A stretch of 64,000 bases of DNA. Origin: Eledone cirrhosa (taxonomy: Eukaryota). Where the stretch lies: contig OZ024757.1 in the NCBI GenBank assembly GCA_964016885.1, forward strand, positions 20,336,001 to 20,400,000. Reading direction: 5' to 3'. Positions 62,188 to 62,775 of the stretch are shown here, one piece after another (the first letter of the stretch is position 1; every line of letters starts with the position of its first letter). The notes under the pieces are model-generated. The model had not been told where the DNA came from and searched no databases. It saw only the letters and a list, made by a program, of their open reading frames with translations. Both the position numbers and the translations under genes were made by a program.

Positions 62188-62775
62188 TCATAAATGAATT
62201 GAGAGAGAGACTGAGCATAAGAGGAATCAAATGCTGCGTGCAGGAGAGGCGGTTACGCTGGTATGGGCATGTGATGCGTATGAAGGATGACAGCTGCATA
62301 AAAAGGTGCAGAGCACTAGAAGTTGATGGAAACCGCGGAGTGGGGAGACCCAAGATGACTTGGGATGAGGTGATAAAAGCCGACCTTACCCAACTACACC
62401 TCTCAAAGTCAATGACACACGACCGTGACTTCTGGCGTCACGCAGTAATACAGGGTACCCGACCTCCCATGGGTACATGCTGAAGCATATAAATAATATG
62501 CCCCCCCCCCCCCCACCGCAAGGTGGTCGTGGAGGTGCCACGGCAAAAAAGCACCCAGCCCACACTGTAAAGTGGACGTGTAGGCGCCACGAATAAGCAC
62601 CCAGCACTCACTGTAAATGAGGTTGGTGTTAGGAAGGGCATCCAGCTGTAGAAATCAAGCCAGATCAGTTCCTGTATGAGCAAGGCATGGTCAGCCGACC
62701 AGACACTGCCCACAACAGGACAACCCGTCTAACCCATGCTAGCGTGGAAGAACGGACGTAAAACGGTGATGATGA
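62188..62775 (+). mobile_element. 5'-truncated RTE LINE: ORF end + 3' UTR matching the SINE A tail
   Basis: [24 protein letters not shown] then modules identical to SINE A and aggaagggcatccagctgtagaaatcaagcc. Confidence 0.9.

Follow-up and report, generated by a model that had tools for sequence, protein, structure and literature searches.

The repeated unit lies in an RTE-type 3′ UTR within a 64-kb window (the whole stretch of DNA that was analysed) of the Eledone cirrhosa genome, which is approximately 3.0 Gb in size. The element is a 5′-truncated RTE-clade LINE of family A1 on the forward strand, and the 3′ end of its ORF was identified as an open frame at 62193..62483 (TGA at 62481-62483). 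In a tblastn comparison, this ORF end was 66% alike to the C-terminal part of the RT ORF found at 45800-48328, which carries RVT_1 and PHD. The element was laid out as RTE ORF end, C-rich tract, repeated unit, single conserved core and terminal stem-loop with (TGA)n. In the A1 element, all on the forward strand, the C-rich tract immediately 5′ of the module was found at 62501..62512 and also precedes the module in families B, D and G. It was followed by the 5′-most hairpin (62513..62526; 5 bp with a GCAA loop of the GNRA type), which resembles PK-B minus 2 nt, the predicted H-type pseudoknot PK-A (62526..62555; S1 of 6 bp, L1 of 2 nt, S2 of 5 bp, L2 of 0 and an A-rich L3) and, with no spacer to PK-A, the predicted second pseudoknot PK-B (62556..62575; S1 cag/cug, S2 ccac/gugg, L3 uaaa). 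A second, weakened PK-A (62576..62601; S1 of 4 bp and a C.A mismatch in S2) and a terminal PK-B (62602..62621; S2 cuca/ugag, which is caca/ugug in families B and C) preceded the single core hairpin with the invariant motif aggaagggcatcc (62621..62661). The terminal stem-loop with its (TGA)n tail (62724..62776) has a shape common to RTEs without the module and is likely the priming signal.

The preliminary description had reported a unit of about 49 nt, and units of 49-51 nt were found here at the same positions, with the hairpin at 62513-62526, S1 at 62526-62531/62539-62544 and S2 at 62534-62538/62551-62555. Its copy numbers of 1, 2, 3, 4-5 and 17 per element were all present in the window. 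A second A-type 3′ end with 4-5 units was identified at 63398..63790 (+), and a SINE with a tRNA-like head, CORE-like body, hairpin, one unit, core and D-type tail at 3649..3998 (+). The CORE-like domain's 3′ half in this SINE (3768..3792, +; aligned by eye with MIR1_AMi) could also take the PK-B fold (cag/cug, cuca/ugag), while the 17 units formed an array in another SINE copy (37764..38913, -). A young family B RTE with an 842-aa open frame occupied 45421..48328 (-) and its 3′ UTR contained a degenerate unit, intact PK-A/PK-B, a unit with a weak S2 of only 2-3 pairs, a terminal PK-B and the core. A further family B 3′ UTR copy was located at 41585..41951 (+) and an older family B 3′ fragment at 22616..22838 (-). 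The family B stems S1 ucgug/cacga and S2 gugu/acac were present as described; the gguaac/guuccc pairing proposed for the copy at 22780-22820 in the older fragment takes two S1 bases and was not the family majority in 14 B2 copies. Apart from these elements, the window contained a near-perfect 87-nt inverted repeat (21764-21850), a minisatellite of 78 copies of 21 nt (27069-28713) and another of 19 copies of 45 nt (33704-34558) apparently derived from a piece of another SINE. An open frame at 50470-51507 (-) gave no Pfam match; its later part resembles the GIY-YIG end of a Penelope-like element.

Family sorting of 94 genome stretches with 382 core-bearing places produced eleven groups (A1 28, SINE 41, B1 8, B2 14, C 23, D 22, E 7, F 23, G 19, H 19 and I 16) and an ungrouped remainder; groups C to I were set by the fetching query and strictly are not independent lineages. 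Genome-wide, 58 stretches of 10 kb contained 56 matches to the core, or approximately one per 10 kb, which makes the module a very common sequence in the E. cirrhosa genome. The autonomous elements showed a single ORF with APE and RT and a microsatellite tail, as in RTE elements, and we presume the clade name from the C-terminal motif and the tail rather than from a tree with named references.

The chain of units was placed by its sequence context in the 3′ UTR of families A, B, C, F, G and I, in the non-coding SINE and, contrary to the earlier restriction to 3′ UTRs, in the 5′ UTR of lineage D. Of 22 copies of this lineage, 20 had the endonuclease portion of the ORF downstream of the module. 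The D chain lay 210-340 nt upstream of the first conserved endonuclease motif, with the motif gtctaggag directly 5′ of it. For D loci traced to the end, the RT end ran straight into the terminal stem-loop in 12 of 16, the other 4 being unclear. A tree of 42 C-terminal fragments grouped 17 D-clade copies together (100/100), with 25-38 nt between RT end and microsatellite; the other 25 copies had long 3′ UTRs and the core was seen in 21 of them, and in the remaining four a core is probably present in decayed or interrupted form. For RTE-2_OV of O. vulgaris, the available part of PMC9115989 likewise describes a microsatellite that begins where the ORF ends, which is the arrangement of D. For young family B, where 40/40 scored matches were identical, none of four module motifs was found in 22 5′ regions (15 longer than 800 nt, maximum 989 nt) that stop short of the true 5′ end. 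The family B 5′ region contained tandem monomers of approximately 310 nt with CCAAT- and TATA-like boxes, and the family B ORF has a PHD finger after the RT.

In the SINE, an A-type module stood between a CORE-like body and a D-type tail, and its last ~45 nt matched the terminus of lineage D and not that of A1. Its head was tRNA-like by eye and ARAGORN found no tRNA in it. The SINE had been called the partner SINE of the RTEs; this link did not hold, as the SINE tail is the terminal stem-loop of D, which is without a 3′ module. The SINE may carry the module as a hitchhiker. In one SINE copy (stretch L041 near 4290, +), the CORE-like PK-B was joined directly to the unit with the intervening hairpin deleted, which suggests that two PK-B-like sequences can recombine. 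Families G and H contained a 143-nt repeat of core, PK-C, PK-A and PK-B ahead of a terminal D-like tail, and two G copies followed an RTE ORF end.

The unit had been described as a GNRA-capped hairpin followed by one H-type pseudoknot. Both the shuffles and the paired changes between families support the pseudoknot; they do not support the GNRA hairpin as far as repeated units are concerned, where the model needs amending to a second pseudoknot or a hairpin with an 8-nt loop. The unit is better read as two predicted abutting H-type pseudoknots, PK-A and PK-B. At sequence level, crossing stems, a short L1, an L2 of 0-1 nt and a longer L3 were found, except for an L2 of 4 nt in PK-A of families G and H. 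Single 50-nt units were tested to remove the effect of tandem copies; with pseudoknot loop limits that were fixed once the sequence was known, 0/500 dinucleotide shuffles in each of 5 families reached two abutting pseudoknots in a unit, and 1-40 of 500 reached PK-A alone. An H-type scan of family majorities showed pseudoknots tiling with little or no spacer, with four consecutive ones in family C (4-33, 33-53, 53-82, 82-103) and seven in family D. The chain exceeded all 60 shuffles in 9 of 11 family majorities; its strength was not above shuffles in families G (5/60) and H (7/60). A third type, PK-C, had a different sequence in each of D1, D2 and G/H while both of its stems were preserved, and its H form was reached by 0/500 shuffles. 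Conventional nested folding of the unit region as a whole was not above shuffles (z -1.4); the PK-A S1 hairpin was also present in the ViennaRNA centroid and RNAalifold recovered PK-A S1 and the cag/cug stem only. An additional pseudoknot within the core hairpin was considered and dropped: of 29 sequences, one had a second stem that exceeded shuffles at p<0.05.

Across 15 class representatives, 84.4% of cells paired in the two-pseudoknot model compared to 21-46% in slid structures, and 13 cells changed on both sides (0/500), measures that are inflated by the relatedness of the rows in a set whose structure was drawn from one row and where G/H are out of PK-A register. Stricter covariation measures in the same set were not significant (double-change pairs 83/500, pair types 185/500). 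About five independent double changes can be counted from the sequences across 11 family groups: in PK-A S2, U-A to A-U (family C) and, at the S2 end, C-G to U-A (B), and in the PK-B stem, U-A in place of A-U (A terminal) and in place of C-G by way of U-G (D), while the S1 end varied between U-A, U-G and C-G. Single-event paired changes were thus seen for PK-A S1, PK-A S2 and PK-B S2. PK-B S1 (cag/cug) has 3 bp and never varied, and PK-B may therefore be a simple hairpin whose loop has 8 nt. A plain hairpin stood in the place of PK-B in contigs of two other organisms (X3, X12; low consensus agreement), and PK-A/PK-B-like sequence was present in contigs of X2, X5 and X13 (low agreement); these contigs serve as evidence of presence only. 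Taken with the shuffles, the paired changes argue for the predicted fold, and the zero-length spacers suggest that the chain would stack coaxially.

For the GNRA hairpin, the described ccacc-GCAA-ggugg at 62513-62526 was found, as a subfamily trait. In 31 copies of the family, the closing pair of the 5′-most hairpin was U-A in 14, U-G in 9, C-G in 7 and C.A in 1, and the loop was GNRA in 29. A GNRA hairpin in every unit was not sustained: no double change occurred in that register and the hairpin failed in the internal unit of B (U.U closing) and in D1. These sequences support a true GNRA hairpin at no position other than the 5′-most one. In the GNRA register 86.7% of cells still paired, and for families A, C and F this hairpin may be an alternative fold.

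Loss of S2 in some units, as previously noted, was evident in the window: of the 19 parsed units that do not belong to the long array, 10 retained the four central pairs in full. In the 17-unit array they were complete in 1 of 14 parsed units (broken in 13/14 vs 9/19 elsewhere). Unit copy number ranged from 1 to many-kb arrays. Long arrays of 48-49-nt units were also located at C5:47070755-47091139, C2:398553059-398554739, C18:30735568-30737516 and C12:49236283-49238322. The extra 49-nt copies likely arose by slippage or unequal exchange, and the long arrays are best seen as decaying, that is, as neutral expansion without function.

Parts of these sequences belong to known domains. A conserved RTE 5′-UTR/Ceph domain was reported by Kojima 2018 (PMC5786205, available part), and the lineage D chain adjoins this domain, with the D 5′ UTR module beginning with its motif. 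The D segment after the motif resembles OegopSINE and the RTE-12_AMi segment of the supplement of PMC5786205, as far as the supplement is available. Among the sequences printed there, ggag..ctct becomes gggg..ccct in RTE-3_BF, RTE-1_NV and RTE-4_NV, by eye a paired change. The accessible text of PMC5786205 proposes no RNA fold, speculates on transcription-factor binding and gives no 3′ UTR location, and the core motif had 0 matches in the available supplement text. Because the chain adjoins a domain of the 5′ UTRs in RTEs of many animals, its sequence setting suggests that the chain moved from 5′ to 3′; a structured RNA module moved between the 5′ and 3′ UTRs of sister LINE lineages would be unusual.

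According to the same source in its available part, RTE 5′-UTR pieces were repeatedly retained in non-coding SINEs (PMC5786205), and the CORE-SINE central domain (MIR) is known from octopus OR2 (PMC4758252, likewise in part). The SINE body aligned with MIR1_AMi, and both 3′ halves can form PK-B (cuca/ugag vs ccca/uggg in MIR); this likeness is one pairwise by-eye comparison with a sequence from the partly available PMC5786205 supplement, and homology of the CORE and RTE units stays a candidate. Other CORE-like SINEs of the genome kept the PK-B stems by eye, with different loop lengths. Identity with the V-SINE Vhc was rejected, as the core motif had 0 matches in four supplements of PMC4758252 and the Vhc SINEs printed in its available part differ. 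Conserved SINE bodies, meaning CORE in its 3′ half (MIR is an example) and Ceph in its RTE-derived half, could conceivably each represent one link from an ancient chain of RTE pseudoknots, which would dock RNA on a retrotransposon protein or the ribosome regardless of position, a proposal that we hold as rather doubtful. If true, it would explain the repeated capture of CORE/Ceph bodies by SINEs.

The core motif was also found in at least 120 metagenome loci. In 101 of the 120 listed (within L112-L229), it lay in an element of approximately 250 nt without a tRNA head, with an RTE-like tail and (GT)n, that starts sharply ~30 nt 5′ of the core and looks like a bipartite non-autonomous RTE; others of the listed loci followed a tRNA-like head. 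No PK-A/PK-B unit was noticed among the listed loci. In locus L196, a Twister-P1-like sequence (320-377, -; 24 bits, E 0.26, below the gathering score, central consensus intact) stood immediately upstream of the core motif within a short element whose tail is RTE-like. A twister reading of the unit itself was rejected on the differing strand order and the lack of an Rfam match, and a Twister/HDV-like ribozyme likewise had no Rfam match for either the unit region or the D 5′ UTR. Focused Rfam scans of these two regions gave chance matches only, and in the whole window nearly all of the 150 listed of 478 matches were microsatellites against miRNA models. A scan of viral contigs produced one chance match, in a coding frame.

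The reading that we favour, with a probability of roughly 0.4, is that the chain acts as a position-independent second cis-signal which aids the loading of the RNA with RTE protein, while priming is left to the separate terminal stem-loop. The RTE UTR repeat would form stacked H-type pseudoknots in a row and would help to load the RNA with newly made RTE protein from either end, either by direct protein binding as with the R2 pseudoknot or by tethering to the ribosome as with Alu, for which ribosome tethering has been proposed; priming would rely on the terminal stem-loop of ~45 nt. A loading scaffold is favoured by the need for a role that works from either end and is kept in a non-coding RNA. 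Binding of protein by the chain is suggested by analogy with the A-clade R2 protein, which binds a UTR pseudoknot according to the available part of PMC12180492. A 3′ template-recognition signal for reverse transcription, the RT-recognition site of the preliminary description, would fit the recognition of a 3′ UTR pseudoknot by A-clade R2 proteins and the 3′ UTR position of the chain in six families. Lineage D speaks against such a signal: it transposes with 25-38 nt after the RT end and no module near its 3′ end, the SINE tail matches that of D over the last ~45 nt, and both the copy number and the S2 quality of the module vary. Since priming in D does without a module at the 3′ end, it is unlikely that the module serves as the priming signal, and we consider this explanation highly improbable. 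An ordinary minisatellite, in which the pairings are G/C-rich by-products or functionless relics, would agree with copy numbers from one unit to many-kb arrays, the broken S2 of the array in the window and the lack of significance in the stricter covariation measures. It fits the long arrays. However, the same topology is built from different stems across families with zero-length spacers and the loops vary between fixed stems, which makes it improbable as a general account.

Among the functional alternatives to a loading signal, a translation or stability enhancer similar to the tobamovirus UPD is the strongest competitor and little behind, if on balance somewhat unlikely. The chain would then replace poly(A) at the 3′ end or aid initiation from a structured 5′ UTR. 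Its architecture is that of the three consecutive stacked pseudoknots of TMV, which are able to replace poly(A) (PMC4683447; bioRxiv 10.1101/2025.10.12.681957; available parts), these RTEs end in (TGA)n and not in poly(A), structured 5′ ends raise translation of a Schistosoma RTE (PMC8501958, in part) and the D chain stands 210-340 nt before the first conserved endonuclease motif. On the other hand, the chain is intact in a tRNA-headed non-coding SINE, the 5′ and 3′ versions would require different mechanisms, and there was no sequence likeness to the viral element in the form of an Rfam match. The chain could also block exoribonucleases, as an xrRNA-like 5′-3′ block or a 3′-5′ barrier. Compact pseudoknots can block nucleases and the D chain is near the 5′ end; a nuclease block is also stated for the R2 ribozyme fold in the available part of PMC13708176. 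With a 5′-3′ block, copies should start at the chain, yet 18/18 SINE copies extended past it into the CORE body, and the 31 B-tail breakpoints were spread, with three at -76/-77, two of which belong to one tandem junction. These small and indirect samples of 18 SINE and 31 B-tail copies showed no pile-up of 5′ breakpoints that would support the exonuclease block suggested earlier, and point to neither a strong RT stop nor a fixed-5′-end source. In addition, the distance between the chain and the 3′ end exceeds 100 nt in A and B, so that the chain cannot protect the priming end, and a nuclease block appears very improbable. Loading with RTE protein thus remains the preferred reading.

While the sequence domains are partly known already, the pseudoknot chain in RTE UTRs is apparently undescribed. 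No description of such a chain, or of a pseudoknot in CORE, was found in the open text of the literature, and the available part of PMC13282606 does not mention structure. The conserved SINE bodies and the RTE 5′-UTR domain have no known function, and a fold with named pairs makes the question testable. RTE-1 is also under development as a gene-writing tool, with a template that carries its own UTRs, tuned empirically (PMC13708176, available part).

Compared to known systems, the module resembles satellites grown from retrotransposon UTR repeats in that its unit of 48-51 nt has grown into long arrays in which pairing is lost, an analogy which accounts for the long arrays and not for the conserved one or two units. 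The tobamovirus UPD (PK1-PK3 of TMV) likewise has consecutive small UTR pseudoknots of varying number in an RNA without poly(A). The RTE chain differs from the UPD in having no following tRNA-like structure, in being present also in a 5′ UTR and a SINE, and in the absence of a sequence match, so the likeness is a candidate one only. Closer to the elements studied here, the pseudoknot-hinge-stem of A-clade R2 (PMC12180492, available part) is likewise a UTR pseudoknot in a non-LTR retrotransposon; there, one pseudoknot in the last ~65 nt is needed for priming. In contrast to R2, the RTE chain has several predicted pseudoknots, which are separated from the end by more than 100 nt or else located in the 5′ UTR, and belongs to an APE-type element.
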